Origin: a virus
IMG/VR virus record: IMGVR_UViG_3300032770_000015
Location: 1-64,000 of that record
Strand: one strand, 5' to 3'
Length of the DNA stretch: 64,000 bases
Positions 6,700 to 63,996 of the stretch are shown in pieces. The position numbers were made by a program, and so were the translations under genes. Every line of letters begins with the position of its first letter. Positions within the stretch are counted from its first letter, which is position 1. The notes below the pieces were generated by a model. It was given only the letters and a program-made list of their open reading frames with translations, did no database searches and was not told the DNA's origin.

Positions 6700-6771
6700 C
6701 AGACTTCCTCGACGGTGAACGTCTTCTCGACCGCCTCGCCCGTCGGGATGGTCTTCCAGCTCTTCACCATG

Positions 6772-8131: not shown

Positions 8132-8133
8132 GG

Positions 8134-9599: not shown

Positions 9600-9768
9600 G
9601 CGTCTCCCCTCTCGCGCGAACACGTCGGCTCGCACGTCGTCCGGCGGGCCGTATCGGTGCCCCGCCGCAGGTGATAGATCGGGGCGCGGCAATCGGGACA
9701 GCGCCCGATCTCGCGCCACTCGTGGTCGCCGCCCGGAACCGGGGCCGCCGAGGCGACGGGCCGGGAAC

Positions 9769-15249: not shown

Positions 15250-15256
15250 AGGTCCA

Positions 15257-26360: not shown

Positions 26361-26363
26361 CGG

Positions 26364-27338
26364 TTAGTACCCCCGGAACGGCGTGTCGTCCGCCGCGCGG
26401 ATGATGAACGGCAGGGCGAACGACCCGTCATCCTCGACGGTCATATTCTGCATGTCGCTCAGAGTCGTCGGCGTATCGAGGAAACACGACTGCGCGACGG
26501 GCATCCCGGCCGGGTTCAGCGGCCGCACGATCCCATCATCCCAGGCCTGTACGTACCCGACGTAGACATTGCCCATGTCCGCCGTGTTCGACGCCGGAAG
26601 GATCTGGAAGTAGTGCGCGTTCGCCGCGATGACCCCGGTCGCCGCGCACGTGAACTGGTACACGCCGCCACCCACGGCGACCATGCTCAACAGCGTGCCG
26701 TTGAGCACCGACGGGACCGGTACCCCGCTCGACCAGGTGATCACGAGCTGTAGGCGCGCCGCGCCCGCCGTGCTGTCCTGGAGCTGAACACGCCAGCCCC
26801 CGGCGGCCTGCGCGGTCCCGACGGCGCACCACCAGGTGAAGATCTTCGTCGAGGTCGCCGCCGAGAACGTGGGGAACGGCGTGTAGCGATAGAATTGCTG
26901 CGCGCCCGTGCTGGTGTCGATGATCAGGTCGAGCGGCACCCCGTTCTGCGTGAGCGCGCCCTGCGTCCGCGTCGCACCGCCCACGTTTGTCCAGGCGGCG
27001 TCACCAACCGTCAACGAGCTGAAGAGCAGCGCCCGGTCCGCGTACCAGCTGAACGGATTCTTCTGCCAGGCCCACCGCAGAAAGCTATTCCATCCGTAGG
27101 CGCCGTCCCACCCGCTCAGGGCCACGGGCGCCGTCACGTCGGCCGACCCGATCCAGCGCGCGACGGCCGAGAGATACTGGTCCGTCCCGTACGTGATCCC
27201 GTCTTCCGACCCATCTTCCCCGGCGAGCCAGGCCGACCCGGCACGCGGCGCCGGATAGGCCAGCGGCGTGTCGATCATCAGGTTCAGCGTGTTCACCAGG
27301 CCCGTGCCCCACGCGATCTTCGGTAGGCGGTCAATCAC
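26364..27338 (-). CDS. distal-tail-like protein, paralog 1
   Basis: Immediately downstream of the tape measure gene; paralog of the next gene. Confidence 0.6.
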   Translation of the reverse strand: MIDRLPKIAWGTGLVNTLNLMIDTPLAYPAPRAGSAWLAGEDGSEDGITYGTDQYLSAVARWIGSADVTAPVALSGWDGAYGWNSFLRWAWQKNPFSWYADRALLFSSLTVGDAAWTNVGGATRTQGALTQNGVPLDLIIDTSTGAQQFYRYTPFPTFSAATSTKIFTWWCAVGTAQAAGGWRVQLQDSTAGAARLQLVITWSSGVPVPSVLNGTLLSMVAVGGGVYQFTCAATGVIAANAHYFQILPASNTADMGNVYVGYVQAWDDGIVRPLNPAGMPVAQSCFLDTPTTLSDMQNMTVEDDGSFALPFIIRAADDTPFRGY

Positions 27339-27341
27339 GGC

Positions 27342-30056
27342 TCACGCCCCCTGGAAGGTGACCACGGCGTCACGGCCCGCGATCTGCTGCAGCGCCTTGA
27401 TGAAGGCCGCGTACTGCGCCGGGTCGTCCATGTTCAGGAACGAACCGCCCTGGATCACGACCTGCAGCGAGCCCGCGTTCCCCGAGGCCGCCGTCGTGCT
27501 CGTCACGGCCGACGAGGCCGACGACGAACTACTGCCGCCCCCGCCACCCCCGGCGTTCGTCGCGGCGCCGGACAGAACGCCGCCGAGCGCGAAGAACGCG
27601 GCCGCAGCGGCGAACTCCTCGGCCGCGGCGCCCCACTTCGAGGCGTCGCCGCCGATGGCCATGCCCGTGTCACCGATGGCCTTAGCGAGGAAGAACTTCC
27701 CGAGGCCTTCGGCGATGGCCGCGATGGCCTTCAGCATCGTCTCCTTGAACGCCGCCGCCGCCGACTTCGACCCGTCCACCATCGCTGCGAAGGCGTTCTC
27801 GATGGCCGGGCCGAGCGCGTCAATCGTTGAGATCAGGCCGTCGGCGAGCACCTGGTTCAGGCTCGTCGCCGAGTTCTCCGCCGCCGTCGCCGCATCTGTG
27901 AACGCCTGCTTGAACGTCCGCGACTCAACGCCCATCACGCCGAGCGTCAGGCCGAACTTCTTCAGCGTATCCTCGAGCCGCTGCAGCTCGCGGTCCATCG
28001 CCTCGGCCTCGGGACCGTGCATCGTCGCCCGGGCCAGGAGCATCGCCGGGCCGATGGTGTTGATCGCCGTCCGAAACTGCGTGATGCTGATGTCGTTGTG
28101 GGACAGCTGGGTCGTGAGGTCCTGCGATTCCTGGATCAGGACCTTGAGCGCCGCGTTCCGCACCGCGTCGTCGAGGGTGCGGATCGCCGTCGTCAACGTC
28201 TGCTGCTCGTGCGCCGTGATCCCGGTCGTGGCTGATAGCGTCGTCAGCTGCGTTGTCAGGTCAGCGGCCCGCGCGCGATATTCGGCGAGCGAGATGTCCC
28301 CGTGCGTGAACTCCTGGTCGAGCCCGCGGACCTGCGCCACGGCGCCCTCCACGGCCGTCTGCAACGCGGTCGTGTTATACCGGCGGAGCGTGTCATCAAT
28401 CGCTTGCAGCGACCGGTTCAGCGTCTCGAGCTCGGGGCCGTGCAGCGAGGCCCGCATCGCGTACATCTGCGGGGTGATCTTCCCGATCCCGGCCTGGAAC
28501 GCGGCGAGCGTAATGTCACCGTGCTGCAGCTTGCTGTCCAGGTCGGTGGCCTGGTTCGTCAGGTCCTTGACCGTCGCGTTCCTGATCGCGTCGTCCAGGT
28601 TCGTGACAGCGTCGCGCAGCGTCTGCTGCTGCTTCGCGGTCGTTCCGGCGGCCCCGGCCAGGGCATTCAGCTGCACGACGAGCGCCGCGCCCCGCTGCCG
28701 GTACTCGTCGAGCGTGATGTCCCCGTGCGCGTACTGCTCCTCGAGCTCGCGGACCGCGGCCGTTAGGGTCTGGATCGCCGTCGTCTGGTTCGACGTATCG
28801 CCCTGCTGCCCGGCGAGGTTCGGCCCGGCCCCCGCCCGGTGGATGTCCGGCGCCGGGAGCGGGTTCGCCGTCGCGTCGTGGTATAGCTTCAGCCAGTCGT
28901 CGCGGACCGTCAGCAGGGCCAGGTCTACGCCGGTCATCGCCTGGTTGAACGTCTGCACGCTCTCCGCCACCTGGCGCCGCCACGGGCCGTCGTCAATCGG
29001 CGGCAGGATGGTCGGCTTCAGGTCGGGGATCGCCGCCATGATCGTGCCCAGCTGGGTCGGAAGCAGCGCGATCATGTGCTTGATGGCGTTGACCTTATCC
29101 ACCGCCCACTCTTCGACCCGGTTCAGCAGCGGCGTGACCTCGTTGATGATGTCGATCCAGCCCGCGATGGCCCCGTAGATCACCGCCTGGATCGCGCCGC
29201 TGATCGCCTTCCCGATGTCGAACGCGATCTTGAACGTCCCAACGACCGAGTCCACGACGATCCGCACCACGTCGGTGATGACGCTCCCCCACTTCACCCA
29301 CGTGGCCATATTGTCCTGGATGCTCTTCGTCTCCTGCTGCATCCAGCCGCTCAGATTCCGGCTCGCGTCGCCACCGGAGATGGACCCCGCGATTACCTCG
29401 CCCATCGCGGTCTTCAGGTCGGTCCAAGACGACTTCAAGATGTCGATCTGCCCGGCTAGCGACTTCCCGCGCTCCTCGGCGATGGTGAACATCGGCAACG
29501 TCGCCGTCATCAGCGCGTTGTACCGTTCCTGCTCGGTCCCGAGCCCGTTCAGGTTGATCCCGTACCGCTGGAGACCGTTTCCGGCGCCCTCGAGCGCCTT
29601 CGCGATCAGCGTGCCCGCGCGCTCGGTCGAGATGCCGAACGTCTCCGACAGGCCCACGGCCGCCTTCATCACCCCGGCGATCTGATCCCCGGTGAGCGTG
29701 TGCACCATCGTCGTGACGATCTGCGCGACCCCGAGCGTCGCGTTCTCGGTCACGCCGGTTAGCTTCATGATGTTCAGCGCCATCGCCTGCACGGCGTCCG
29801 ACGCATCATCCGAATACCGGCCCGTGACCCGCAGGGCGGCGTTGAACGACGTGATGGCGCCCTCGCGGTCGGCAAACGCCTCGATGAGCCCGGCACCGAA
29901 CCGCACGAGCTCGTCGGCGATGAAGCCCGAGACGAGTCCCTTCAGCGATGCGACCTGATCCCACAGGTTCTGGACGTTCGCAATGGCCGACGTGAACGCC
30001 GCGCCGGTCGCGTCGTACGCATCTATGATCAGCTCAACGATTGTGCGGTTTGCCAT
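27342..30056 (-). CDS. tape measure protein
   Basis: 904-aa Ala-rich helical protein after the tail assembly chaperones. Confidence 0.85.
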   Translation of the reverse strand: MANRTIVELIIDAYDATGAAFTSAIANVQNLWDQVASLKGLVSGFIADELVRFGAGLIEAFADREGAITSFNAALRVTGRYSDDASDAVQAMALNIMKLTGVTENATLGVAQIVTTMVHTLTGDQIAGVMKAAVGLSETFGISTERAGTLIAKALEGAGNGLQRYGINLNGLGTEQERYNALMTATLPMFTIAEERGKSLAGQIDILKSSWTDLKTAMGEVIAGSISGGDASRNLSGWMQQETKSIQDNMATWVKWGSVITDVVRIVVDSVVGTFKIAFDIGKAISGAIQAVIYGAIAGWIDIINEVTPLLNRVEEWAVDKVNAIKHMIALLPTQLGTIMAAIPDLKPTILPPIDDGPWRRQVAESVQTFNQAMTGVDLALLTVRDDWLKLYHDATANPLPAPDIHRAGAGPNLAGQQGDTSNQTTAIQTLTAAVRELEEQYAHGDITLDEYRQRGAALVVQLNALAGAAGTTAKQQQTLRDAVTNLDDAIRNATVKDLTNQATDLDSKLQHGDITLAAFQAGIGKITPQMYAMRASLHGPELETLNRSLQAIDDTLRRYNTTALQTAVEGAVAQVRGLDQEFTHGDISLAEYRARAADLTTQLTTLSATTGITAHEQQTLTTAIRTLDDAVRNAALKVLIQESQDLTTQLSHNDISITQFRTAINTIGPAMLLARATMHGPEAEAMDRELQRLEDTLKKFGLTLGVMGVESRTFKQAFTDAATAAENSATSLNQVLADGLISTIDALGPAIENAFAAMVDGSKSAAAAFKETMLKAIAAIAEGLGKFFLAKAIGDTGMAIGGDASKWGAAAEEFAAAAAFFALGGVLSGAATNAGGGGGGSSSSSASSAVTSTTAASGNAGSLQVVIQGGSFLNMDDPAQYAAFIKALQQIAGRDAVVTFQGA

Positions 30057-49855: not shown

Positions 49856-49870
49856 GGTCGTGCCTCCGCG

Positions 49871-50110
49871 TTACTCGGCGTCGCCGCCGGTCGTCGGGGT
49901 GCCCCCGAGGTAATCGCCGCAGGGGTCGTTCGTGTTCGGGTCCGACGCGTGCGACGTGCCCTGCGCCAGCGTCAGGTGCTTCGCCGCCGAGGCGAACGCC
50001 GCGCCCGGAACGCCGTGCTTCTTCGGGTCGGTCGCGTCGCCCCGCGGGCGGGGCTGCAGGCGGTGCGCTACGCCCGCGTCGGCCGCCGGGGTCCGGTTGC
50101 CAAACGCCAT
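49871..50110 (-). CDS. MAFxN-leader small protein 4 (divergent)
   Basis: MAFGNRTPAADAGVAHRLQ; first gene of the leftward arm. Confidence 0.65.
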   Translation of the reverse strand: MAFGNRTPAADAGVAHRLQPRPRGDATDPKKHGVPGAAFASAAKHLTLAQGTSHASDPNTNDPCGDYLGGTPTTGGDAE

Positions 50111-50586
50111 GGGGATACGCCTCAGATCGTTGCAGTAGGATTTTGCTACCGGGTTCAATCTACGCTGGCCGCGCGGCCGCAGCGGTCTTCCGGGCCGGGT
50201 CGGACGCCCCAGCGCCGCAGGCGCCCACTTCGGTATCACGATACCGGGTCGGGGAACGGCGGGGGCGGGACCAGGGACCACGGGTCTACATGGTGTCGGC
50301 AAACCGGATTCCCGACCGGGGCGGTACCCTACGGGGTACCCCCGGCGGAAACGGTTGCCGCGGGATGCGTCTACGCGTGGAATCGAGACGTTTTCGTCAC
50401 GTTAAGCACGTCTACCTGCATGGAGTTCTTGCCGTAGCCGCCGCCGGGCCGGAGCCGCCGGGGGGCGACGGCGTGCGGTCACTACGACGTGCGTAGACGC
50501 GCGGGGGCCACGCCTGGCGGCCGATCCGGGGCGCGGGCAGGCCGGGGCGTAGGTCCGTGGTCGTTCGCCCCGCGTACGTGAACCTC

Positions 50587-53236
50587 GTAACCCGTTCGGG
50601 CGCCGAGCGTTACATCGACTTAACGGTTCGGGAACCGTTCGGTCCGGGCGCCGGATGATTCCCGGTCGCACCTGATACCGGGTTGACGTAACGCGCGAAC
50701 GTACGCCCGTAAAGCGTTACGGCGTAACGGGTTACAGAAACGACTGCATATAATATACGTTACGTTAAGTAAGCCCGAATAGGCCGCAAGTGGCGTCGCG
50801 GCGCGGGTTTACGGCGTCGGCGCCCGGTCGCGGCGTGTTACGGGTTCGGCGCCCGATGACCTAGGACCACGCGGCGGCGCCGAAACCGGCCGACCCCGGC
50901 GCGGCGCGGTTCGCGCGCGGATCGTGACCAGGCGGCCTAGCGGCGGCGTCGTACCGTGACGCGTGCGACGTTCACGCAGACGACCCGATCCGGCGCTCTT
51001 CCGGGCGACCGGGCGGGCGCGCGGCGTCTCACACGTCTACGGGGGCGTCGTGTTTCAAGACGCAAGGCTGGGCAGAGTGGGCCAAAGCATCTTCCCGACC
51101 GCGAACCGGTCGAAGGGGCCTATAAGTGAAAGTCCTTCGTAGGGTCTTCGGCGTTATTGGGGCGATTCGCCCCACAACGTCGGCATTCCGCGGCACTGCG
51201 GCGATTCGCGACAGATGGCTATCGCATAATGCGTCACTGCGGCATTCTGCGACACGACTGTAAAGATTCACGACAGTGGGGCATTTCGCCCATGCAGCAA
51301 TCGCATTTTGCGGCACTGTCGCCATAGCGCTCCGCTGCCGATCCGGCCGACCCGACCCGGGGCGTCGCCGACCGGGCGGCGCGGCCGCAAGCCTCTCCCA
51401 TGTCCACGGGCGCGTCGAACCCGCCGGGCGGGGCGTACCCCGTAGGGGTACGACCCCTGGCCCGTACGGGTACGACCGACGCGCGCCCGAACCGTTAACC
51501 TATTCCCGATCCTATTCCCGTGGCGCGTCGCCGACCGCGTAACCCCGTGGTCCCTGGAGCTTTGCGCCGCGTCCCGCGTCCCGCCGCGACCGTCGCCGAT
51601 CCGGCGCGGCTGCAACCTATTCCCGGCGGTCGCGGGCGCCGTTAACGGTAGCGCGGCCGACGGCGCCCCGGCGCCGTTTCCGGGCAGGCGCAACCGTTCC
51701 GTGGCGCGGCGGCGCCGTTTCCGGCCGTCGTCGCCCCGGAACCCTCGGCGCCCGGCCGACTCCCGCGCTGCTCCGGCCTGCCGCCCGAACCCCGTCCCGT
51801 CGGCCCGCGTCGCGTGGCCCCGGAACTGGTCGCCGCCCCCGTCCGCGTAGACGTGCGGAGAAGCGTGATCCCGCCGCGCCCGGCCCGAACGTAAAGTGGT
51901 CCGTCGTCGTCGGTTACTCCGCCCCGGACCGGTCGCCCGACCGAACGCCCGGGCGTCGGGGTCGGCGCGCCGCTCGCGTGAACCTCGCACGTGACCCTGT
52001 CGTTACAGTATCGTTACACGTTCGTTACATCGGGTCGGCCGGTCGCGGCACGGTTTTCGCGCGCCGCCAGAAGTGTAATCGTTTTGTAACGGAGAAATTT
52101 CCGTGCCAGGCCCGGGATTCGCACGCCGCCGCGGAATGCGGCGATGTAACGATCCGATTACAAGGCGACGAACGGGCCGCCGTGGCACGGTTTTTTACGA
52201 CCCTTGCCGGTGACCCGGAGAAGCGTGCCCCGCGCGCTGCGTGAAACCGGCGGAAAGCCAGGCGCGGCGCGGGTTTCCGCGATTCACGCCGGGTCGGTCG
52301 GGCGGACGGCCGCGCGGTCTTCCGTTCGCACGTCTACGCGGAACGTCGCACGAACGCCCCCGGAAGTGGCGTCGCGGCGCCGTTTCCGGCACCCGGGCTC
52401 GTCGGTTTCGACCCCCGGCACGTCGCGGGGCCGGACCGGGCGTCGCGCCGGGGCGGAATGTAACGATCCGGTTACATTCGGCCGGTCGGCGCCGCGTTGG
52501 CACGATTTTTCAAACGTGCTACGATGACCCGTACGCCCCGACCCGTCGCGGAACCGGTTTGTCGGTAAACCCGCGCCGCGTAACGGGTTACGCTACGTCG
52601 CCGGGGCGCGGCCGTATCCCGATAACCCCCACCCCCCGGCAAACGGGTCGTAACCCCGTACGCCGTAACGGTTTACGACCGGTCGCGAAGACGGCCCCCG
52701 TTTCCACGTCTACGGTCATCCTCGCACGCCGCATTTCGCCGGGGATCGGACCCGTCGGGTATGGCCCGCCGCCCGATTCCCGACCTCGGCGCCCGGCGTT
52801 CGCCCGACCGGACCGGGCGCACGACCCCGGCCGACGCCCGCCCGGCGTCGCCGCCGCCCCGGGGCGGCCCGATCCGGCGGGGGCGCGGGTCCCGGGCAGC
52901 CCAGGTCGGAATTCGCGCGTTTATAGGAGAGGTCGTAACCGCGTACGCCGTAACGGTTTACGGGTGTGATCTCAAGGCCCCCGCCGCCGCGCCCCCGGGC
53001 GCCGAACGGCGCAAAACGGTCCCAAACGGCCGATCCGGAGGTGACACGTTTGCACGCGCGCGGAAGCGTCGTAACCCCGTGGGAATACGGAAGTTACGGC
53101 GTTTTCGTCGTGCGCCCATTTTTCCGGTCGCGCCGGACCGTCCAAAATGCCCCGGTTTCGGGACCGCCCCCGCCGACCCGGTAGAATCGCGCGTATACTA
53201 GCACGACCCGTAACCCGTTACGCCGTCGCGCTTTAC
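50587..53236. repeat. dispersed 27-bp GTAA-N19-TTAC motifs
   Basis: Copies at 50587, 50709, 52565, 52650, 52935, 53071 and 53210; variants at 50786 and 51539. Confidence 0.75.
50743..50770 (+). other. dif: dif-like XerC/XerD recombination site
   Basis: ACTGCATATAA-TATACG-TTACGTTAAGT, 11-6-11 layout; right arm matches E. coli XerD arm TTATGTTAAAT at 9 of 11 positions. Confidence 0.7.
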
Positions 53237-53257
53237 GGATGTAATCGGATCGTTACA
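52145..53257. promoter_or_regulatory. TGTAA-N8-TTACA operator-like palindromes
   Basis: 52145-52162, 52459-52476 and 53240-53257; the third is the exact reverse complement of the first. Confidence 0.65.
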
Positions 53258-53775
53258 CATCTACGGCGACGGCGGCCCGGGATTCGCTACGTTTTCGGGT
53301 CGCGGACCCCGGAACGCGGCGCGACGCCGTACCGACCGGGAAAACCGCCGGGGGAACCGCCGGGCCCAGCGCGCCGCGACGATACCGGGAAGGCGAAGCC
53401 GGAACCCCCGAACGAACGAACCCGCGCGACGGACGACGGCGCGGGTCGGGTGAACGAAGCACCGACGGGGATGGTCGGATTAACCGGAACCCCCGCCGCC
53501 GGACCCCCGACCCGTACTGGGGCGACACCGCCCCCATCGTCCGACTGGTCGTCGCGGGCCGCCCGCCCGGCGCGCCGGAACATCGGCCGCGAACCCGGGG
53601 CGAACGGGCGGGGGTTTTCCGCCGGGGGCCGTTCCCCGAACGCGGACGCGACCCGCCACCGTTCCAGCGCACGTCGTCCCGCCGGGGCGTCGAATCCCCG
53701 GCAGGACATTCGCAGAAACCCCGCCGACCGGTCCGGCCGCGCGGGGCGTATCCCCGAACCGAAAGGAACCGACCC

Positions 53776-53991
53776 GTGGTCCCGATCCGCCTCACGCTCG
53801 ACCCGCTGGGCGCCGGGTACGTCGAACTCGTCGCCGTCGTGCATGACGCGACGTACGACGCCGACGTGCGCCGGACGATCCGCGTCTCGCTCGAATCCTT
53901 CGGCCCGTCGGCGACCGTCGTTGCCCTGCGGGACGCGAAAGGGAACCTGGTCACGGCCGCCGACTGGGCGCTCTTCCCGTCGGTCGCATAA
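53776..53991 (+). CDS. early hypothetical protein
   Basis: GAAAGGA RBS. Confidence 0.65.
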   Translation: MVPIRLTLDPLGAGYVELVAVVHDATYDADVRRTIRVSLESFGPSATVVALRDAKGNLVTAADWALFPSVA

Positions 53992-54096
53992 CCCGTCGCC
54001 GCCCGGCGTCGAATCCGGGCGGCGTCATACGAACCGAACGCCCGCGCCGGACCGGCGCTGGGCGAGCCGAAACCCGAACCGAAAGGGACCGTCCGA

Positions 54097-54411
54097 ATGA
54101 AGCCCGTGAATCCCGCCTGCGCCGACGATACGTCGCTGGCCGGGTACGTCGACACGACGTACGCCGCGCTCGTCGCTGCCTTCGGTCCGCCGAACGGCCG
54201 GAGCGACGGATACAAGGTGGACGCCTGCTGGGTCCTGGCCGCCGGTGGGCGGATCGTAACCGTGTACAACTGGAAGGACGGCCCCGCGTACCGGGGCGCG
54301 GCCGGTACGCCGGTCGAGGCGATAACGACGTGGCACATCGGGGCGCACTTCGCCCCGGCGGCGCTCGCCGCGATGCGGCGCGCGTTCCCCGGCCGCGTTT
54401 CGGCCGCGTGA
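54097..54411 (+). CDS. early hypothetical protein
   Basis: GAAAGGGA RBS; TTYAALVAAFGPP...YNWK...WHIG. Confidence 0.7.
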   Translation: MKPVNPACADDTSLAGYVDTTYAALVAAFGPPNGRSDGYKVDACWVLAAGGRIVTVYNWKDGPAYRGAAGTPVEAITTWHIGAHFAPAALAAMRRAFPGRVSAA

Positions 54412-54674
54412 CGAACCCGACGGCCCCGGGCTTCGAAACTCGGGGCCGCCTTACGATCCGAACCGCCCGCGCCGGACCGGCGCCGGGCGGCGCTGCGTTG
54501 GGCACCGGGCCACCGGCCCGGCACGCGACCAGATGCCCCGGGGGTTGGATTCGCCCGGCGGTCGCCGCCCGCCCGACGCCCGGGGGCTTCGAAACCCCCG
54601 CGCGTCATCGCTGAACGTCGCCGGGCCGGACGGCCGGGCGACCCCGTACCCGCCGGACGAAAGGAACCGTACCC

Positions 54675-54833
54675 GTGGCCCCGCACGCGAACGAAGACCG
54701 GATCATCGCACAGCTCGACCGGGACGCCGTCTACCACGTCGCCGACCGCCTCGCGTTCCGCGTCGCCGACGACGCCGCGATGGCCCGCGCCCTGCGGCCG
54801 TACGTCGCCCGCTGCACCGCCGTTACGTTCTGA
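54675..54833 (+). CDS. early small protein (52 aa, not in ORF track)
   Basis: GAAAGGA RBS, GTG start, stop immediately before the next repeat element. Confidence 0.6.
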   Translation: MAPHANEDRIIAQLDRDAVYHVADRLAFRVADDAAMARALRPYVARCTAVTF

Positions 54834-55028
54834 ACCCGTCGCCGCCCGGCGTCGAACCCGGGCGGCGCCTTACGATCCGAACGCCCGCGCCGGACCGGCG
54901 CTGGGCGAATTCTTCCCCGATCCGAACCCGCACGACCAGAAAGGGACCGACCCGATGACCTCGACCCCGATGGACGAGCTGGCCGCCCTGCTCGTTCGCA
55001 TCCAGCGCCGTCGTCCGGCGCCCGCCCG

Positions 55029-55319
55029 ATGAACCCCGCCGTCGTCGCCATCGTCGTCGCGGCCGTCCAGGACGCGCCGACCCCGTACCGCCTGGCCGAC
55101 CGCATGGCCGCCCAGCGCGCCATCGTCGCCGCCGTCGCGCCGTACTTCGGCGGCGACCAGCTCGCCGCGTCGCTCGCGGTCGCCCCGGCGTACGCCGCCG
55201 CCGTCGAGCGCATTGCGGCGGTCCGGCGGAACCGGATCACCGGCCTGTCGTCGTCGCTCCCGGCCGGGGTCGTCATCGGCGACCGCGCCGTGCCGATCTC
55301 CGCCGTCGCGGGTGACTGA
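55029..55319 (+). CDS. early hypothetical protein
   Basis: Coupled to a 25-aa ORF at 54955-55032. Confidence 0.55.
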   Translation: MNPAVVAIVVAAVQDAPTPYRLADRMAAQRAIVAAVAPYFGGDQLAASLAVAPAYAAAVERIAAVRRNRITGLSSSLPAGVVIGDRAVPISAVAGD

Positions 55320-55445
55320 ACCTACCGACGAGGCGTGACCCGCCCCGCGTCGCCCGGGGGCTTCGAAACCCCCGGGCGTCGTTCGCTCCGAACGTCCGCG
55401 CCGGACCGGCGCTGGGCGAGTTCTTCCCCGAACCGAAAGGGACGT

Positions 55446-55823
55446 ATGGAACACGACGCGCGGCACCTCTTCGAAGACCGGTACGGCGACGGTCACCCCT
55501 CGACGCGCTACCACGCGCGGCTGATCATCGCCGGGGCCGAGAACGGCCTCGCCGGATACGGCGTCGTCGTCATCCCGGCCGGATCGTCGGCCCGGCAGGT
55601 CCAGGGCGGGCCGCTCGTCCCTGGCCCGTGGGCCGCGACCTTCGGGCTCTGCACCGTCATCGACAACGCGGGCGGAACCGGCGCCGAGGTCGCGCGCGAA
55701 ACCGCCCGGGGCGACGCCATCCGCGTCGCGGCGGGCGATACCGTCCGCCTGACCGACGCCGTGACGGTCCGCGTTACCATCGGGCGGCGCGAGTACCCGG
55801 ACCTGACCGTGGTGGACCGGTAG
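55446..55823 (+). CDS. early hypothetical protein
   Basis: Start revised to ATG at 55446 after GAAAGGGA RBS. Confidence 0.65.
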   Translation: MEHDARHLFEDRYGDGHPSTRYHARLIIAGAENGLAGYGVVVIPAGSSARQVQGGPLVPGPWAATFGLCTVIDNAGGTGAEVARETARGDAIRVAAGDTVRLTDAVTVRVTIGRREYPDLTVVDR

Positions 55824-55924
55824 GGCCGCCGGGCGGGGGCTTCGAAACCCCCGCCCGTCATCGCTGACCGACGGACGCCGGACCGGCGGGCCGTCCCTAT
55901 TCCCCGATCCGAAAGGACGAGCTG

Positions 55925-56596
55925 ATGAAGCGCTACCAGATCATCACGGCGAACCGCGCCACGAGGTCGCAGGCGGGGTACGCGCAGACGGAATCGTCAA
56001 CCCTGGAGCTGGGCGAGTCCCTGTTCGTCACCGCCGAGAAGGCCGTCCCGCGCGGCGCCGGGGTCGAGGTCGAGCTGTTCGACACGGTCAAGAACAAGGT
56101 CCTGCGGTCCCGGTACTTCCCGACGCTCGACGAGGCGCGGGCGTCCGTCGCCCGGCGGCTCGCGAAGCACGTCGAGAGCGAGGTCGAGGCGGCCGAGGCG
56201 TCGCTGGCGAAGTTCACCGCCGAGATCAACCGTAACGTGGCGTCGCTCCGCGCCTGGGCCGTGGCCCGTGCGAACGGCGCCGACCTGACCGACTGGCGGG
56301 GCGGGAACACCGACGTGGAGTCGCCGTTCCGCTGGGCCGACGACTCGGTGGCCGCCGCCGCCCGCCTGATGGTCGCCCGCGAGGTCGAGGAATATCTGGC
56401 GACCGACCGCGCGCCGTCGGCCATCGTCGCCGCGCTGCGGACCCAGGTGCTGCGGTCGGCCCGGAACGGGCTGTCGCGGTCCACGTCGTCGTCGGCGAAC
56501 CTGACCGAGGAGGCCCGCCTCGCCGCGCGGGCCGCGATGGTCGAGAAGCTCGAAACCATCGTCGCGTGGGCGACCGACATGGGCGTCGAGGTCTGA
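55925..56596 (+). CDS. early hypothetical protein
   Basis: GAAAGGA RBS, 223 aa. Confidence 0.7.
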   Translation: MKRYQIITANRATRSQAGYAQTESSTLELGESLFVTAEKAVPRGAGVEVELFDTVKNKVLRSRYFPTLDEARASVARRLAKHVESEVEAAEASLAKFTAEINRNVASLRAWAVARANGADLTDWRGGNTDVESPFRWADDSVAAAARLMVAREVEEYLATDRAPSAIVAALRTQVLRSARNGLSRSTSSSANLTEEARLAARAAMVEKLETIVAWATDMGVEV

Positions 56597-56599
56597 ACC

Positions 56600-56662
56600 G
56601 CCGAGGGGCGGGCGCCGACGAACCGGCGCCCGTTAAGGCACGGCCCGGTCCCAAGTCCGGGC
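56600..56662 (+). ncRNA. twister ribozyme (P5-type permutation) #1
   Basis: GCC-GAGGG-P1 hairpin-TAA-GGC-AC..CCGGTCCCAAGTCCGG; predicted cut 56634/56635. Confidence 0.88.
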
Positions 56663-56757
56663 GGAACGCAGGACGCCGCGCCAGGTATGGTGCCGGGTAA
56701 GCGTCCGTGCCGAACCCCATCACTTGAGGTGACATATGCGGTAGACCCCCGGGTAAC

Positions 56758-56835
56758 GCCGAGGGCGACGATCCGCCGGGCCGTACGCGCGCCCCGGGTC
56801 GTCGTAAGGCGCATGGCCGGTCCCAAGCCCGGCCG
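56758..56835 (+). ncRNA. twister ribozyme #2
   Basis: Same architecture with CCGGTCCCAAGCCCGG; predicted cut 56805/56806. Confidence 0.88.
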
Positions 56836-56859
56836 AACCCGAACGAAAGGAACGACCCG

Positions 56860-57234
56860 ATGTCGCTTCGCTGGCAGATGTCGAACGAGCAGAGCCCCGC
56901 GTGGGTGAACCTGTCGCCCGTGATGCGGGAGACCATGATCTTCGGCCTGGTCATCGCCGATATGGGCGAGATCAAGGACGAGGCCGCCGCCGAGAAGTTC
57001 TGGACCCGGCTCCGGATGGCCGAGCTGGCGCAGGGCGACTCGTTCGTCCACCAGACCCCGGCGGGCGACGGCCCGATGATCCAGCGTTGGATCACCCTGG
57101 CCGACTGCCGGGCGGCCATCGGGCTCGGCGCGAACGTGCGGACGACGACGGACGCGCAGTACAATCGGAAGGTCGCCGGTATCCTGCGCGACACGGCCGT
57201 CGCCGAGCTGCGGCGGGCGAAGGACGCAAAGTAG
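56860..57234 (+). CDS. early hypothetical protein
   Basis: GAAAGGA RBS; flanked by twisters. Confidence 0.7.
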   Translation: MSLRWQMSNEQSPAWVNLSPVMRETMIFGLVIADMGEIKDEAAAEKFWTRLRMAELAQGDSFVHQTPAGDGPMIQRWITLADCRAAIGLGANVRTTTDAQYNRKVAGILRDTAVAELRRAKDAK

Positions 57235-57298
57235 CCGAGGGGCGGGCGCCGATCCGTCGGCGCCCGTTAAGGCGCACGGCCGGTCCCAAGCCCGGCCG
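57234..57298 (+). ncRNA. twister ribozyme #3
   Basis: Same architecture; predicted cut 57268/57269. Confidence 0.9.
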
Positions 57299-57322
57299 AA
57301 CCCCAAATGGAAAGGATGCCGG

Positions 57323-57811
57323 ATGAACTACGCGAACGTGCTAGGCGAGGCGAAGGGCAAGTTTGGCGCGTGGACCGCCTGGTATGTGCTGGGCGAGGCC
57401 GCCACCGGGTACGCGGTCCGCGCGCAGTTGGCGCCCGACCTGACGGTGAACCCGTTCACGGACACGGACATCTACGGCGCGGTCAAGGAGATGAACAGCA
57501 CGCAGCGCCCGGCCGGGTTCGACGGCGCAGCGCGGAAGATCCACACGCCCCGGTCGGTGTACTGGTGGCAGCCGCCGTCGGATACGCGCGACGCGGCGGT
57601 CATCGCGTCCATCGCCGAGCGCGTGCGGCGGTTCCTGAACGACGACTGGTCGTATGTCGGCCTGCTCGTCGAGGTCCGGCACCCGCCCTGCACGCTGTGC
57701 GGCGAATCGCGGGTCACGTCGGCCGGGCTCTGGGGCATCGAGTCGGACAGCGACGACGGGTACGTGATCGAGACGCTAGGCGACCTCGTGAACGAGGCGA
57801 AGGACGAGTAA
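57323..57811 (+). CDS. early hypothetical protein
   Basis: GAAAGGA RBS; flanked by twisters. Confidence 0.7.
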   Translation: MNYANVLGEAKGKFGAWTAWYVLGEAATGYAVRAQLAPDLTVNPFTDTDIYGAVKEMNSTQRPAGFDGAARKIHTPRSVYWWQPPSDTRDAAVIASIAERVRRFLNDDWSYVGLLVEVRHPPCTLCGESRVTSAGLWGIESDSDDGYVIETLGDLVNEAKDE

Positions 57812-57812
57812 C

Positions 57813-57875
57813 GCCGAGGGCGACCGCCGCGCGGTTCCGGCGGTCGTAAGGCACGGCCCGGTCCCAAGTCCGGGC
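57813..57875 (+). ncRNA. twister ribozyme #4
   Basis: Same architecture; predicted cut 57847/57848. Confidence 0.88.
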
Positions 57876-57899
57876 GACCCCATCAACGAAAGGACGTGT

Positions 57900-58100
57900 A
57901 TGGCGCTCGTGATGCTGCCCCGTACCGACGACCTGCCGCCGGTGTACGTGAACCCGGCGCACGTCGTCGGCGTCGAACCGTCGGTGACCGACCCCGGCGC
58001 GCCGGTCTGCACCGTGTACGTGCTCCCCGGGAACCGGGGCCACTTCGTCGCCCTGTCGGCGCTCGAGGCCGCCCGCCGCCTGAACGGGGGTGCCGCGTGA
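57900..58100 (+). CDS. early small protein
   Basis: GAAAGGA RBS; VYVNPAHVVGVE. Confidence 0.65.
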   Translation: MALVMLPRTDDLPPVYVNPAHVVGVEPSVTDPGAPVCTVYVLPGNRGHFVALSALEAARRLNGGAA

Positions 58101-58477
58101 GGACGAAGCTGAACGCCCTGTTCAAGGCGCTGCGCCAGGCGGGCGTCGCGGCGCACCAGAACTACGAGTGCTGCCAGGGGTGCGGCTGCGCCCGCGTCGC
58201 GTCCGAGATCGGCGTCGTCGGCGCGTACGTCTTCTATCACCACCAGGACGCCGAAGACCTCGAGCCCCCGCGCCATCACCGTGCGGGCGACGGCTGGCGG
58301 CCCGGCGTCTACCTGGCGTACGGGATCGTGTCGGCCGTGGAGCTGCCGGACGCGGTGGAAGAGGCCCTGCGGCTGAAGGTGGGCGAGCTGATCCGGAGGC
58401 TCGCCACCGTGGTCGGGCTCGCCGTCGAGTGGGACGGGACGACCGCGCAGCGCATCTGGGTCACGGAGGCCGCGTGA
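58097..58477 (+). CDS. DUF6891-like protein
   Basis: LNALFKALRQAGVAA.QNY.CCQGCG ... VFYH.QD ... VEWDG; start revised to GTG at 58097. Confidence 0.6.
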   Translation: MRTKLNALFKALRQAGVAAHQNYECCQGCGCARVASEIGVVGAYVFYHHQDAEDLEPPRHHRAGDGWRPGVYLAYGIVSAVELPDAVEEALRLKVGELIRRLATVVGLAVEWDGTTAQRIWVTEAA

Positions 58478-58800
58478 TCGACACCCTCGAGCCGTCGCCG
58501 CGCCGCGAGCCCACGCGGCAGATGTTCATCGTTCCGAACGACCCCGCCGGGCGGGCGGTCATCGCCACTCTGCGCGCATACCTGAACCGGGCGACCTACC
58601 GCCTGCGGGTCGTCGGCCGGGGCGTCCGCGCCGACCGCGCCCGCGAGTTCCGCCGCACGCACCGGGCCTGGGCGACCCGGCGCCCCGACTACGCCTGGAT
58701 TCCGCGCCGGTACGCGACCCGCCTGGCCGTGTACATCGAGCGCAAGGACGGGATCGGGATCAACTGGCAGCAGCTCCGCACGCTGTACCCCGTCCGTTAG
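58474..58800 (+). CDS. early hypothetical protein
   Basis: GTGA overlap, GGAGG RBS. Confidence 0.6.
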   Translation: MIDTLEPSPRREPTRQMFIVPNDPAGRAVIATLRAYLNRATYRLRVVGRGVRADRAREFRRTHRAWATRRPDYAWIPRRYATRLAVYIERKDGIGINWQQLRTLYPVR

Positions 58801-58864
58801 CCGAGGGGCGGGCGCCGATCCGTCGGCGCCCGTTAAGGCGCACCGCCGGTCCCAAGTCCGGCGG
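58800..58864 (+). ncRNA. twister ribozyme #5
   Basis: Same architecture; predicted cut 58834/58835. Confidence 0.88.
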
Positions 58865-58890
58865 AACCCACTGGAGAAAGGCTGGGCGAG

Positions 58891-59232
58891 ATGTCCGACG
58901 TGCAGATCACGAAGGTTCACGCCGTCGAGTGGCACCGCAACGGCGTCGGCGGGCTCGGGTTCCACGTCGTCCTGTTTGACGAGGCTACGGAGGGGCGGAT
59001 GATGGCCGTGGACTTCGGCCCCGAGGCCGACGCGGCGACGGATTCCTTCGGGGTCATCGCGGTCTTCCAGCTCGACAAGCTAGCGGCCGGTGACGTGGCC
59101 TTCGGGTCGAACTCGTGGCGCGGCGACCACTACACCGGGCCAGTCCGGGCGGTCATCACGGCGGCCGAGGCGCGGGGCGAGACCGGGAAGCTCGGGCCGT
59201 TCTCGCTGCCGCCGCAGCTTCGCCGGAAGTAG
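58891..59232 (+). CDS. early hypothetical protein
   Basis: WHRNGVGG.GF.V ... NSWRGD; flanked by twisters. Confidence 0.7.
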   Translation: MSDVQITKVHAVEWHRNGVGGLGFHVVLFDEATEGRMMAVDFGPEADAATDSFGVIAVFQLDKLAAGDVAFGSNSWRGDHYTGPVRAVITAAEARGETGKLGPFSLPPQLRRK

Positions 59233-59293
59233 CCGAGGGGCGGGCGCCGATGGATCGGCGCCCGTTAAGGCACGGCCCGGTCCCAAGTCCGGC
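59232..59293 (+). ncRNA. twister ribozyme #6
   Basis: Same architecture; predicted cut 59266/59267. Confidence 0.88.
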
Positions 59294-59319
59294 GACCCAT
59301 CTCAAAGGAGGCAGCCGGT

Positions 59320-59634
59320 ATGAGCGCACGCGTCTTCGTCTGGCCCGAGCGGACCTACGAGGAGCTGGGCGCCGAACGCTGGGCCGTGTCCTGGAAGACC
59401 GTGCGGCCCGGCGCCAACGTAAATGAGGAGATCGACTTCGACGTCGACCTCGTGGACCGCGCCGTCGCCTGCCGGACCCACGCGGCGGCGGTTGCCCGCG
59501 CGCGGCGCGCCGCCGCCGAGGACTACTTCGGCGGGGCGGTCGTTCAGCGCCAGGTCGTCGCGTGGGACGTCGAGGAGGACCGCATCGCCGAGTGGGCCCC
59601 CGCTGGTGAACCCGAATATGTGGAGGACCGATGA
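59320..59634 (+). CDS. early hypothetical protein
   Basis: AAAGGAGG RBS. Confidence 0.7.
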   Translation: MSARVFVWPERTYEELGAERWAVSWKTVRPGANVNEEIDFDVDLVDRAVACRTHAAAVARARRAAAEDYFGGAVVQRQVVAWDVEEDRIAEWAPAGEPEYVEDR

Positions 59635-59990
59635 GACCGCGCACGTCGATCATCGTCGCCCTTCGGCCCGGCCGAACCCAGGCCGCGGCCGACCGCCGCG
59701 AGCGGATGGAGACCATCATCCTGGCCGAGGCCCGCGCCCGGGGCGTCCGGTATGACGGGTCGGGGAACTACGTCACGGGGCCGCGGCGCGGGACGCGCGA
59801 GCTTTTCTTCGTGACGCGCCGGCGCGACCTGACCGTCGCCGCCGTCCGCGACCTGAAGGCCGACGTCCGCGAGGCGGAGCACTTCGCCTACCGGACGTAC
59901 TTCATCACCCGGGACTATGGGACCGGCGCCTGGCTCGTGAACCGCGGCGGCCGGACCGTCGCCGCCGCCGCCCGGGCGCTGGTCCGTTAG
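59631..59990 (+). CDS. early hypothetical protein
   Basis: ATGA overlap; C-terminal part resembles 62682-62957 (RDLK.D.R...HF.YR..). Confidence 0.65.
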   Translation: MRPRTSIIVALRPGRTQAAADRRERMETIILAEARARGVRYDGSGNYVTGPRRGTRELFFVTRRRDLTVAAVRDLKADVREAEHFAYRTYFITRDYGTGAWLVNRGGRTVAAAARALVR

Positions 59991-60113
59991 CCGAGGGGCG
60001 GGTGCCCGTCCGCGATGCGCCGCTGGGTCGAGCCGGGTTCCGACCGGCGCCAGCACGCGGTCTCGCACGACGTGGTACCCGTTAAGGCGCACCGCCGGTC
60101 CCAAGCCCGGCGG
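59990..60113 (+). ncRNA. twister ribozyme #7 with extended P1
   Basis: Same core with a long insertion in P1; predicted cut 60083/60084. Confidence 0.82.
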
Positions 60114-60140
60114 AACCCCACTAGAGAAAGGCTGGGCGAG

Positions 60141-60500
60141 ATGGATGAGCGGCAGGCATCGCGTGAGGCAGCCGAGGACGTGCGGTACGAGCGCTGGGAG
60201 GCGCTATTGTTCAAGCACGTGCCCGGCCTGACGCGCGGGAAGAATCCGGCGTGGCGGTCCGACTTGATGATGGAGGCCGATGGCGGCCCGATCTTCATGA
60301 AGTTCATGTCGGACGGTGGCGTGGATGACACGCCGAACGGTCTGGCGCTGCGGGCCTGGCTCCGGGCGCGGAAGATTCCGTTCCGGCAGTATGGGCTGAA
60401 GGAGGACCCCGGCCAGGTGCGGGTCTTCACGCTGTCGCGGCGGGCGTTCGCCCGGGTCGAGGCCATTCTGCGCGGGCTCGAGCGCCGCGCGGCGCGGTAA
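60141..60500 (+). CDS. early hypothetical protein
   Basis: Start revised to ATG at 60141; leader GAGAAAGGCTGGGCGAG identical to that before 58891. Confidence 0.65.
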   Translation: MDERQASREAAEDVRYERWEALLFKHVPGLTRGKNPAWRSDLMMEADGGPIFMKFMSDGGVDDTPNGLALRAWLRARKIPFRQYGLKEDPGQVRVFTLSRRAFARVEAILRGLERRAAR

Positions 60501-60532
60501 GCCGAGGGCTGCTGGTGCTAAAGGTCGCAAGG

Positions 60533-60597
60533 GCCGAGGGACGGGCGCCCCGATCCGGGCGCCCGTTAAGGCGCGCCGCCGGTCCCAAGTCCGGCGG
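60533..60597 (+). ncRNA. twister ribozyme #8
   Basis: Same architecture; predicted cut 60567/60568. Confidence 0.88.
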
Positions 60598-60618
60598 AAC
60601 CCCGAACGAAAGGACCGT

Positions 60619-60951
60619 ATGATCACGACGAAGCGGCTGATCTTCCACCTCGACGCGGCCATCGCGCGGCACGTCCGCGACTGGCAGCGCCTGACCGAGC
60701 ACGGCACGATTGCCGTCGACTCGGACGTGATAGCGCTGTACGCGCAGGACATGGCCGCGCTAATGCGGGCGCGGTCGGCGTTCTGCCACGCCAGGTTGGT
60801 CGAGGAGCACAGCACGTGGGACACGGCGACCGTCGCCCGGCTGCTGCGCCGGGGCGCGCGCATCTTGCGCGACCGCGACACGGCGGTCACCGACCACTTT
60901 CCCCGCCCGCTCGTCCTGGCGGTCGGGTCGCTGGTCGGCGACGGCGCGTGA
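60619..60951 (+). CDS. early hypothetical protein
   Basis: GAAAGGA RBS. Confidence 0.65.
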   Translation: MITTKRLIFHLDAAIARHVRDWQRLTEHGTIAVDSDVIALYAQDMAALMRARSAFCHARLVEEHSTWDTATVARLLRRGARILRDRDTAVTDHFPRPLVLAVGSLVGDGA

Positions 60952-61196
60952 TCAACACGCAGCGCGCCCGCGCCGCGCTTAACCGGCTCATCGCGGCGGC
61001 CGACGACACGGCCGTTGACCAGGCGTTCCTCGACCGCTTCCTGCGCCGTGCACCGACGTATGCGAATGCGTGCGAGGCCTGCGGGAAGCAGGTCGCCACC
61101 ACCACCATCCTGGGCCACGGGTACTGCGCCCACTGCGGGAACGTCGCGCTCGAGGTCATCGAGGCCCGGCGCGCCCGCCGAAAGGAGACCGCGTGA
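60948..61196 (+). CDS. small zinc-finger protein
   Basis: CEACG ... CAHCG; GTGA overlaps. Confidence 0.6.
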   Translation: MINTQRARAALNRLIAAADDTAVDQAFLDRFLRRAPTYANACEACGKQVATTTILGHGYCAHCGNVALEVIEARRARRKETA

Positions 61197-61618
61197 AGAA
61201 GGTCCGCCACCGGACGACCCGCGCCACGCTGCTGGTCGTTGACCGCCTGAACCTGACCGACCTGCCCGGAAAGGATCTCGCCGGGGCCGACCTCGCCGAG
61301 GAGGACCTGGGCGCGACGAACCTGCGCGCCGCCAGCCTGCGCGGCGCCGACCTCCACGGGGCGTGGCTGCGCCGGACGAACCTGAACGACGCCGACCTCC
61401 ACGCGGCCGACCTGCGCGGCGTGGACGCGCAGGGCGCGGACCTGCAGCGCGCGAACCTCTCGAACGCCGACCTCACCGGGGCTGACCTGCAGGGCGCCGA
61501 CCTGCGCGGGGCAAACTTCGCCGGGGCGTGCTTGACCGACGCCGACCTGCGCGGCGCGAACCTGCGCGGCGTCGCCGTGACGGTCGGCAACCGCACCATC
61601 CTGACGTCCAACGCCTAA
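61193..61618 (+). CDS. pentapeptide repeat protein
   Basis: Tandem A(D/N)LxG repeats; start revised to GTG at 61193 after AAAGGAG. Confidence 0.9.
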   Translation: MKKVRHRTTRATLLVVDRLNLTDLPGKDLAGADLAEEDLGATNLRAASLRGADLHGAWLRRTNLNDADLHAADLRGVDAQGADLQRANLSNADLTGADLQGADLRGANFAGACLTDADLRGANLRGVAVTVGNRTILTSNA

Positions 61619-61680
61619 CGCAGAGGAGGGCCGGGACCGATCCCCGGCCCTAATGCGGCGGCCCGGTTCCAAGCCCGGGC
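61619..61680 (+). ncRNA. twister ribozyme #9 (divergent, covarying)
   Basis: CGCA-GAGGA-P1-TAA-TGCG-GC..CCGGTTCCAAGCCCGG; predicted cut 61651/61652. Confidence 0.85.
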
Positions 61681-61710
61681 GACGTTCACCCCCGAAACGA
61701 GGGAGCGCTG

Positions 61711-62681: not shown

Positions 62682-62957
62682 GTGACCCCGACCAGTCGCA
62701 TACGGAAGATGCGCCCCCTCGAGGGCGACCCCAGCCGGACGGACCGCGCCCGGCGCAACGACCTGACGCGCGCGGCGATCCGCGACCTGAAGGTGGACCT
62801 GCGGGTGCCGACGCACTTCTCGTACCGCGGATTCTACGTCACGCGGTCGTTCTCGACCGCGACCTGGTACATCAGCCGCGACGGGACGCCGATCACCACG
62901 GCGCCGTCGGCCGCCGAGGCGCGCCGGGTCATCGACACGCTGGCGCGGGAGGCCTGA
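62682..62957 (+). CDS. early hypothetical protein
   Basis: Coupled ORF; partial paralog of 59631-59990. Confidence 0.6.
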   Translation: MTPTSRIRKMRPLEGDPSRTDRARRNDLTRAAIRDLKVDLRVPTHFSYRGFYVTRSFSTATWYISRDGTPITTAPSAAEARRVIDTLAREA

Positions 62958-63591: not shown

Positions 63592-63996
63592 GTGAAGCCG
63601 TCGCAGATCGAACAGCAGATGACCGGGCAGTGGGACACCTGGGTCACGACGACCATCGAGGTCTCGACCGCGACCCTGGAACGGTTCGCCGCCGCGATCC
63701 ACACGGTCATCGGCCGTAACGTGGACGTGCGGTACGCGCTTCGCAACGTGGACGCGATGCTAACCGCCGCCGCCGAGCTCGCCGTCGCCCGGTCGCTCGA
63801 GACCGACCGGCGGAACGGCCAGACGTACCGCGAGCTGCACGCGACCGCCCTGCGCCACGCGCTCCATGGGGCGGCGTTTCCCCGGCAGACGGGGCGGGCG
63901 GCCGACGCCATCAACGAGGGCGCCGAGACGGCCGCCTGGGCGCACGTCGAAGAGGTTCTCCGCAGCATCCTCGCCATCGAAAGGACCACACCGTGA
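63592..63996 (+). CDS. early hypothetical protein
   Basis: GAGGAGG RBS. Confidence 0.65.
   Translation: MKPSQIEQQMTGQWDTWVTTTIEVSTATLERFAAAIHTVIGRNVDVRYALRNVDAMLTAAAELAVARSLETDRRNGQTYRELHATALRHALHGAAFPRQTGRAADAINEGAETAAWAHVEEVLRSILAIERTTP

Follow-up and report, generated by a model that had tools for sequence, protein, structure and literature searches.

A phage small-gene operon with nine type-P5 twister ribozymes predicted to divide its message into units of one to three genes

Results

The 64,000-nucleotide stretch analyzed here, referred to as the window, consists of bases 1–64,000 of the 88,562-bp IMG/VR virus record IMGVR_UViG_3300032770_000015, a genome with direct terminal repeats that is rated complete. 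Between positions 56600 and 61681 the plus strand carries nine copies of an RNA element placed between small genes, and their sequences support the identification of these elements as genuine type-P5 twister ribozymes. It is probable that all nine lie within one long plus-strand message and that each cuts itself at a U^A step, dividing the message into units of one to three genes. Judged by its predicted proteins the virus is a tailed phage, since Pfam gives a P22-like coat protein, tail genes, and a family-A DNA polymerase (PolA).

Twisters are recognized by three stems (P1, P2, and P4), by the pseudoknots T1 and T2, by roughly ten nucleotides of the loops L1 and L4 that are strongly conserved, and by a U-A cut site in which the A is conserved (PMC5408937). 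The class is attributed to Roth et al. 2014 by two reviews (PMC5408937 and PMC6765202) which, like the other papers given here by PMC number, are cited from a part of their text. A preliminary description of the window had reported nine such elements, and on reading the sequence all nine were located at the coordinates given below, on the plus strand. The search with the Rfam twister-P5 model that the same description had proposed (Twister-P5, RF02684, gathering score 37.6 bits) placed eight of the nine above the gathering score. When the whole 64-kb window was compared with Rfam using cmscan, exactly eight matches exceeded the gathering score of any family, all of them to Twister-P5, with scores of 47.2–56.5 bits, E values of 4.5e-9 to 1.1e-6, and starts at 56600, 56758, 57234, 57813, 58800, 59232, 60533, and 61619. 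The whole 88,562-bp record contains no twister beyond the nine, no other Rfam family or tRNA was found in the whole genome, and the same twister search matched 0 of 14 control genomes.

Copy 1 (56600–56663, 54.7 bits) has T2 pairs AC/GU and T1 pairs GGG/CCC, and its predicted cut lies at U56634^A56635. The P1 stem is longer in copy 2 (56758–56835, 47.2 bits; predicted cut U56805^A56806), which has GC/GC in T2, and copy 3 (57234–57298, 55.3 bits; predicted cut U57268^A57269) overlaps the TAG stop codon of the gene at 56860–57234. Copy 4 (57813–57876, 53.6 bits; predicted cut U57847^A57848) has a distinct P1 sequence that is still paired, copy 5 (58800–58864, 54.9 bits; predicted cut U58834^A58835) contains a GC/GU wobble in T2, and copy 6 (59232–59294, 55.7 bits) would be cut at U59266^A59267. 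A 76-nt branched insert replaces the P1 loop of copy 7 (59990–60113, 27.4 bits; predicted cut U60083^A60084). The series continues with copy 8 (60533–60597, 51.6 bits; predicted cut U60567^A60568) and ends with the divergent copy 9 (61619–61681, 56.5 bits; predicted cut U61651^A61652), where P2 is CGCA/UGCG and T1 is changed to GGA/UCC with compensation. By count, the position that the preliminary description had given for each RNA end is the A of one of these nine U^A steps. Our own parse likewise returned the joint changes that it had noted in P2 and T1 of copy 9, and the same T2 pairs throughout: GC/GC in copies 2, 3, 7, and 9, AC/GU in copies 1, 4, and 6, and GC/GU in copies 5 and 8.

Stems P1, P2, and P4 are formed in all nine copies according to model alignments, folding, and parsing, and every copy has 3/3 T1 pairs and 2/2 T2 pairs. 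The parts follow one another in the order P2 5′ strand, T1, P1 hairpin, UAA, P2 3′ strand, T2, and P4, which is the circular permutation with its ends at the P5 position. The P5 stem itself is missing from eight of the nine copies, so that "type P5" here names only the location of the ends. The elements share with the RF02684 model this part order, the stems P1, P2, and P4, both pseudoknots, the conserved L1 and L4 nucleotides, and the U^A site; they differ from it by a compensated change in P2 (GCC/GGC in eight copies, GCA/UGC in the model), by the 76-nt P1 branch of copy 7, and by the missing P5 stem. At the 24 columns with a conservation of 95% or more among 63 distinct twisters of other phages, a set whose L4 columns were fixed by the pattern used to retrieve it, seven of the nine window copies show no difference. 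The sole difference in copy 9 is a compensated T1 pair (G8–C132 to A–U), and the mismatches of copy 7 at conserved columns are an artefact of local alignment, its core being intact when read directly. The 5′ end of copy 7 is GCCGAGGG, as in the other copies. In the minimum-free-energy fold of 59985–60115, P2 (GCC/GGC) and the P4 hairpin form together with a P1 that is long and branched. At the base of P1 this copy differs from its closest paralogue, copy 5, by a compensated change from C–G to U–A.

A covariance model built on six window copies was used to search 100 sources, comprising the window, three long loci of other phages, and 96 of 124 loci retrieved by pattern (L107–L126 and nine loci already covered by the long loci were left out), which gave 74 matches. 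T1 and T2 were added by hand to the resulting alignment of 72 distinct rows, a set in which paralogues of one genome are not independent. Across these 72 distinct phage twisters, pairing was present in 97.7% of 1423 cells compared with 72.6% in shuffles, 17 of 21 pairs showed changes on both sides, and none of 500 shuffles reached any of five measures. When the partners were slid by 1–3 columns, pairing fell to 28–48%. The three stems were 96.6–100% paired with compensatory changes present, and the T2 count over the 72 rows was AU 36, GC 29, GU 6, and other 1. T1 and T2 provide the cleanest covariation test, because the pseudoknots lie outside the alignment model. A separate parse covered 56 unique P5-type twisters, taken from this genome and the IMG/VR loci. 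Both T2 pairs were formed in 55 of them, and over the 56 T2 read AC/GU in 28, GC/GC in 20, GC/GU in 4, GG/CC in 3, and AC/GC in 1. The first T2 pair was Watson-Crick in 51 of the 56, compared with 28.1 expected from shuffling, and 0 of 10,000 shuffles were as good. The covariation that the preliminary description had suggested as a check is present, both pseudoknots included, as are the compensatory changes it had seen between copies and the P1 stems that differ in sequence and stay paired. Covariance-model matches, core conservation, and the two pseudoknots together bear out its assignment of the elements to the type-P5 twisters.

All nine copies are on the gene strand, and they start at a stop codon or a few bases past it, with TAG overlapping the first G in four; the exceptions are copy 2, which follows a gene-less spacer, and copy 8, which follows a truncated copy. 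The earlier observation that an element is usually followed by a ribosome-binding site (RBS) and a gene is true for eight of the nine, with copy 1 leading instead into a 97-nt spacer and then copy 2. The RBS after these eight is GAAAGGA-like, and the leader from the predicted cut to the start codon measures 51–59 nt in all of them. The 3′ tails on the upstream products have predicted folding energies of −19.4 to −27.4 kcal/mol, and −52.1 kcal/mol for copy 7. As in a ribozyme-punctuated phage operon, the nine copies delimit blocks of 0, 1, 1, 3, 1, 2, 1, and 3 genes. The predicted pieces would be 171 nt (gene-less), 463, 579, 987, 432, 817, 484, and 1084 nt long, those after the 171-nt piece carrying 1, 1, 3, 1, 2, 1, and 3 genes. 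A scan of 49–64 kb placed the sole sigma-70-like site within the array inside a gene and gave no terminator-like site on the plus strand between array genes. The position between stop codon and start codon is general for the family. An upstream open reading frame (ORF) stop together with a downstream Shine-Dalgarno sequence (SD) and start ORF accompanied 55 of the 74 matches. In the long loci, 21 of 26 twisters had both flanks, defined as an ORF stop within −20 to +6 nt and an SD and start ORF at most 70 nt downstream, compared with 28 of 1040 random positions.

The spacer between copies 1 and 2 (56664–56757, plus strand) has a leader-like segment and, in place of a real gene, only a two-codon frame, ATG-CGG-TAG, after a GAGGTGA RBS. 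The spacer and the flanking ribozyme halves make up the predicted 171-nt gene-less RNA (56635–56805). The fold of 56664–56757 was no better than that of shuffles (z −0.09), and a reading of the spacer as a decayed tenth twister (3′ half and leader) was rejected, its score of 28 being not significant against a null maximum of 29. The spacer may be the remnant of a lost cassette.

The copies are mosaics of half-types. The 5′ half is of type a in copies 1, 3, 5, 6, 7, and 8 and of type b in copies 2 and 4, and the 3′ half is of type alpha in copies 1, 4, and 6, beta in copies 2 and 3, and gamma in copies 5, 7, and 8, so that the two 5′ and three 3′ half-types are joined in five different ways. 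A truncated twister 5′ end, GCCGAGGGC, is present at 60501–60509 on the plus strand, directly past the stop codon of the gene at 60141–60500 and 24 nt before copy 8, and is likely a recombination scar. Copies 5 and 7 have common flanks, comprising the final 8 nt of the preceding gene and the entire leader to the ATG (repeat families D13 and D2), and direct repeats reach 89% identity over 87 nt (family D2, copy 3 versus copy 5). The mosaic copies, the truncated GCCGAGGGC, and the common flanks of copies 5 and 7 point to recombination between copies and to the gain and loss of cassettes, as read from the sequence.

In the part of the operon upstream of the twisters, the slot between stop codon and RBS is occupied by seven copies of an uncatalogued two-hairpin RNA. 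The copies, recognized with our own covariance model R1, lie on the plus strand at 53673–53749, 53992–54068, 54416–54493, 54572–54644, 54835–54911, 55346–55422, and 55825–55893, with one at every gene junction of this segment (53673–55893). R1 scores were 48.8–94.8 bits on the plus strand compared with at most 37.6 bits on the minus strand, and the copy at 53673 was outside the training set. Each element consists of hairpin A, a linker, and the GC-rich hairpin B, followed by the same GAACCGAAAGG leader. Hairpin A has 10–11 bp and a loop of the form C-(G/U)-UCGAA-N, and six of its stem pairs are changed on both sides. Comparison with 4227 Rfam covariance models gave nothing at E ≤ 1 and only noise at E ≤ 10, the best being a match of 23.5 bits on the opposite strand against a cut-off of 50. 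R1 has no matches in three long loci of other phages (G001–G003). A 14-mer of the loop gave at least 119 single matches, estimated as no more than chance for a collection of that size, and a two-part pattern of the element returned 21 loci, one of which scores weakly with R1 (26.8 bits). Three structural readings were rejected: a tRNA-like T-loop for hairpin A (its loop is 8 nt long instead of 7, and no tRNA is predicted by ARAGORN), a loop-linker pseudoknot (no covariation on inspection), and a "bistable" alternative long hairpin (the minimum-free-energy structure only in the copy at 53992).

The two-hairpin element could be a host-nuclease site, a stabilizer, or a ribozyme. It is a candidate for an undescribed self-cleaving class because it fills the slot that twisters occupy at the next nine junctions and belongs to no Rfam family, and guilt-by-association next to known ribozymes earlier gave twister-sister, pistol, and hatchet. 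Such a class, with which two unrelated kinds of catalytic RNA would sever the message of the operon at 16 junctions in a row, is nevertheless a long shot.

Discussion

In the mechanism that we favor, each copy would fold, in order, P2, T1, the P1 hairpin, the U^A site, P2, T2, and the P4 hairpin, and would cut itself between U and A. Of the two products, one would keep the P1 hairpin and the other the P4 hairpin, and nothing but P2 (3–4 bp) and T1 (3 bp) would hold them to each other, a layout that suggests that they can part. The upstream piece would end just past a stop codon in a stable P1 hairpin with a 2′,3′-cyclic phosphate, whereas the downstream piece would begin with 5′-OH-AAGGC and continue through the P4 hairpin into a uniform 51–59-nt leader with its RBS. 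The message would be converted into seven units of one to three genes (432–1084 nt) and one 171-nt piece without a gene, each unit having hairpin-capped ends and a standard leader, and gene blocks would be uncoupled from their neighbors in stability and in translation. Protein-free cutting into such pieces, with a 3′ hairpin and a 5′-OH, would fit the anatomy of the operon. From that anatomy we infer that the RNA is polycistronic, that it is cut in the cell, and that cutting affects stability or translation; the gene order suggests the label "early" that the operon had been given.

Several points weigh against this account. Copy 7 is below the Rfam cut-off, its 27.4 bits coming from a local match at 60039–60110 only, a low score that arises because the 76-nt branch stands in place of the P1 loop. 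In the covariation analysis, the alignment model already included the nested helices, and the pattern loci were retrieved by a fixed P4-loop motif, so that the conservation of the P4 loop is partly by construction. The sequencing runs in which this DNA was found amount to one DNA wetland metagenome, which is maybe the source, and no RNA run. Internal promoters are possible, as the sigma-70 scan does not cover the promoters of this 70% G+C phage. A 5′-OH end could either raise or lower the stability of the downstream piece; RNase J1, for example, degrades the 5′-OH product that the glmS ribozyme leaves.

The mosaic structure of the copies bears on a different explanation, in which the repeats matter chiefly as DNA, as cassette boundaries for the swap, duplication, or loss of small genes, with ribozyme activity as a secondary or selfish trait. 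The free combination of 5′ types a and b with 3′ types alpha, beta, and gamma, the truncated 5′ end at 60501–60509, and the flanks common to copies 5 and 7 would be expected of such boundaries. The cargo is unrelated among the arrays of three phages, and direct repeats of up to 89% over 87 nt (copy 3 versus copy 5) are substrates for recombination. However, the compensatory changes in P1, P2, P4, T1, and T2 across unrelated phages indicate selection at the level of RNA, all nine copies are strictly oriented with the genes and retain an intact catalytic core, and recombination at the repeats may be a by-product. We regard a role chiefly as DNA as unlikely.

It is more doubtful still that the copies are inactive or too slow and serve as plain intercistronic hairpins, such as stabilizers of the mRNA, pause sites, or processing sites for host RNases. 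The non-twister two-hairpin element fills the same slot seven times in this operon, so a hairpin alone may suffice there, and cleavage of the nine copies is a prediction from their sequence. Against plain hairpins, all conserved core nucleotides are kept in the nine copies, the sole change (in copy 9) is compensated across T1, and T2 covaries between copies inside this phage, a degree of conservation that plain hairpins would not be expected to show.

Least probable is that the twisters serve to make special ends, with the halves re-associating and host RtcB or the reverse reaction sealing circular or re-joined mRNAs. Each excised piece would begin, at its 5′-OH, with the 3′ half of one copy and finish, at its 2′,3′-cyclic phosphate, with the 5′ half of the following copy, halves that are interchangeable in eight of nine copies (P2 GCC/GGC, T1 GGG/CCC). 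The same end chemistry underlies the synthetic Tornado twister/RtcB circularization (PMC11263348), and spliced or circular products were raised for hammerhead clusters by Perreault et al., who, in the part of the paper cited here, sought such products and found none (PMC3088659). Moreover, a Pfam scan of phage proteins (a part of the ORFs) turned up no RNA ligase, RtcB, or end-healing enzyme, and the ends would be held by only 6–7 bp.

The favored reading, self-cutting of one message by nine twisters, can be compared with known systems. The early polycistronic mRNA of T7 is cut between its genes by host RNase III, which leaves 3′ hairpins. The present operon would be alike in having an early message cut between genes with 3′ hairpins left, but T7 relies on host RNase III, whereas here self-cutting is predicted, with 5′-OH and 2′,3′-cyclic-phosphate ends. 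In synthetic ribozyme insulators such as RiboJ, the self-cleaving ribozyme sits ahead of the RBS, so that each gene receives the same 5′ leader. The Tornado system uses twister ends that are compatible with RtcB (PMC11263348). The insulators and Tornado are engineered parts, and the phage array would put the same principle to work in nature.

The preliminary description had held that no dense twister array is described in a phage operon, which was too strong in view of a hammerhead precedent from 2011 and an IMG/VR phage with 11 copies. Perreault et al. 2011 reported prophages in which several hammerheads border individual genes or short gene blocks, proposed the same processing into gene-length mRNAs, and showed cleavage in constructs of about 2 kb with three tandem hammerhead arrangements; the genes between clustered hammerheads were not constant (PMC3088659). 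As far as the cited part of that paper goes, those clusters are likewise gene-strand ribozymes flanking variable phage genes, and the present operon differs in having twisters, nine of them within 5.1 kb, and in the uniform leader and the second family of elements that accompany them. The same processing role has already been suggested for twisters, and twisters and hammerheads occupy common gene neighborhoods near phage genes (PMC6765202).

At least 12 contigs of the IMG/VR sample carry two or more exact core motifs, among the 124 stretches listed. A 38.8-kb record rated complete (G001) has 11 Twister-P5 matches above the cut-off at 24118–29574, within 5.5 kb (5118–10578 of locus L130), each followed by a CACTCAC-rich leader of the CACTCACTCAC type, the SD AAGGAG, and an ATG. 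The P1 loops of these copies share GTTTAAAC or GTGTAAAC. G003 has four matches above the cut-off and a weak one, and G002 has two. The G001 and G003 arrays show the same layout of stop codon, twister, short leader, SD, and start codon and hold unrelated small genes. They differ from the present array in that the phages are unrelated (58% versus 70% G+C), as is the cargo, and in their P2 (GAC/GUC) and leaders. A literature search found no description of a nine-copy twister array in a phage operon, and the primary twister works (Roth 2014, Weinberg 2015, Felletti 2017) may hold such arrays. Because of the 2011 hammerhead clusters and the other IMG/VR Twister-P5 arrays, the array is a large and very regular example of an arrangement already known in phages. 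New here are the two-hairpin RNA in the same slot, the mosaic half-types with a truncated copy, and the gene-less 171-nt fragment, a product that is predicted.

Reviews call the roles of bacterial and phage twisters and hammerheads "largely speculative" in the parts cited here (PMC5408937 and PMC6765202). The operon constitutes a compact natural test bed for them, with nine intact twisters, wobble versus Watson-Crick T2, a compensated T1, a giant P1 insert, uniform leaders, one piece without a gene that would be excised, and a second, unrelated element in the same position seven times. Comparing the fates of twister-cut messages with those of messages bounded by the two-hairpin element could separate cutting, end chemistry, and insulation as the purpose of the array. 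The phage is uncultivated, which limits such tests to in vitro systems or a surrogate host.

Cargo genes and genome context

The cargo of the array consists of 12 small genes on the plus strand at 56860–61618, in blocks of 1, 1, 3, 1, 2, 1, and 3, as defined by the map of third-position G+C (GC3), translations, Pfam, and PHROGs. Most of the 12 have no Pfam or PHROGs match. Those with a match are a DUF6891 gene (58097–58477, plus strand), a gene with a weak zinc-ribbon match (60948–61196, plus strand), and, as the last gene before copy 9, a pentapeptide-repeat protein gene (61193–61618, plus strand). Over about 300 nt the DNA of the pentapeptide gene is 67–72% identical to the corresponding genes of Ralstonia, Caulobacter, Salmonella, and other phages.

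The G+C content of the phage is 65–74%. According to the GC3-based gene map, structural and other genes are on the minus strand at 0.2–49.9 kb, and a series of small genes runs on the plus strand from 53.8 kb to about 78 kb. Pfam matches of the phage proteins comprise the P22-type coat protein, a tail tube protein, a GH108 lysin, PolA, a primase-helicase, an SNF2 helicase, a C5 methylase, a transaldolase, a peptide deformylase, and a thymidylate synthase.

The closest cultured capsids, 32–33% identical, are those of the Dinoroseobacter phages R5C and R26L and Pseudanabaena phage Pan1. A search of IMG/VR for close relatives of the phage returned two short contigs with the capsid protein as query and none with the cargo protein at 57323–57811. 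Among genomes the capsid matched three contigs of Chlorobiaceae metagenome-assembled genomes at 34–36% identity, which are of no use for naming the host. Patterns of the twister subtype searched in metagenomes gave 0 matches and then four singletons. Against cultured phages, blastn of the array region matched pentapeptide-repeat genes only, and a 67-nt twister query, in a search that is insensitive, gave nothing meaningful.

The phage also carries auxiliary genes of kinds typical of cyanophages and marine phages, namely a transaldolase, a peptide deformylase, and proteins like Pam3 gp33 and gp34, together with the thymidylate synthase and a radical-SAM/SPASM protein. By Pfam, these genes lie at 2811–3509 and 7106–8955 of the window (both minus strand), at 14907–15365 of locus L001 (plus strand), and at 1340–2245 and 4739–5737 of locus L002 (both minus strand).

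Between the divergent structural and small-gene modules lies a stretch of about 3.8 kb without coding signal (49856–53672), which is possibly an origin or regulatory region. It is rich in short repeat families, including GTAACGG..TTACG palindromes (five copies), ATGTAACGATCCGrTTACA, and GGCGCCGTTTCCGG, and contains AT-richer patches near 50740 and at 51100–51300 and one sigma-70-like site at 52497–52525. In the small-gene operon, two pairs of genes are paralogous: 59631–59990 and 62682–62957 (46% identity over 54 amino acids, E 7e-16), and 55925–56596 and 63592–63996 (30% identity over 135 amino acids, E 2e-5).

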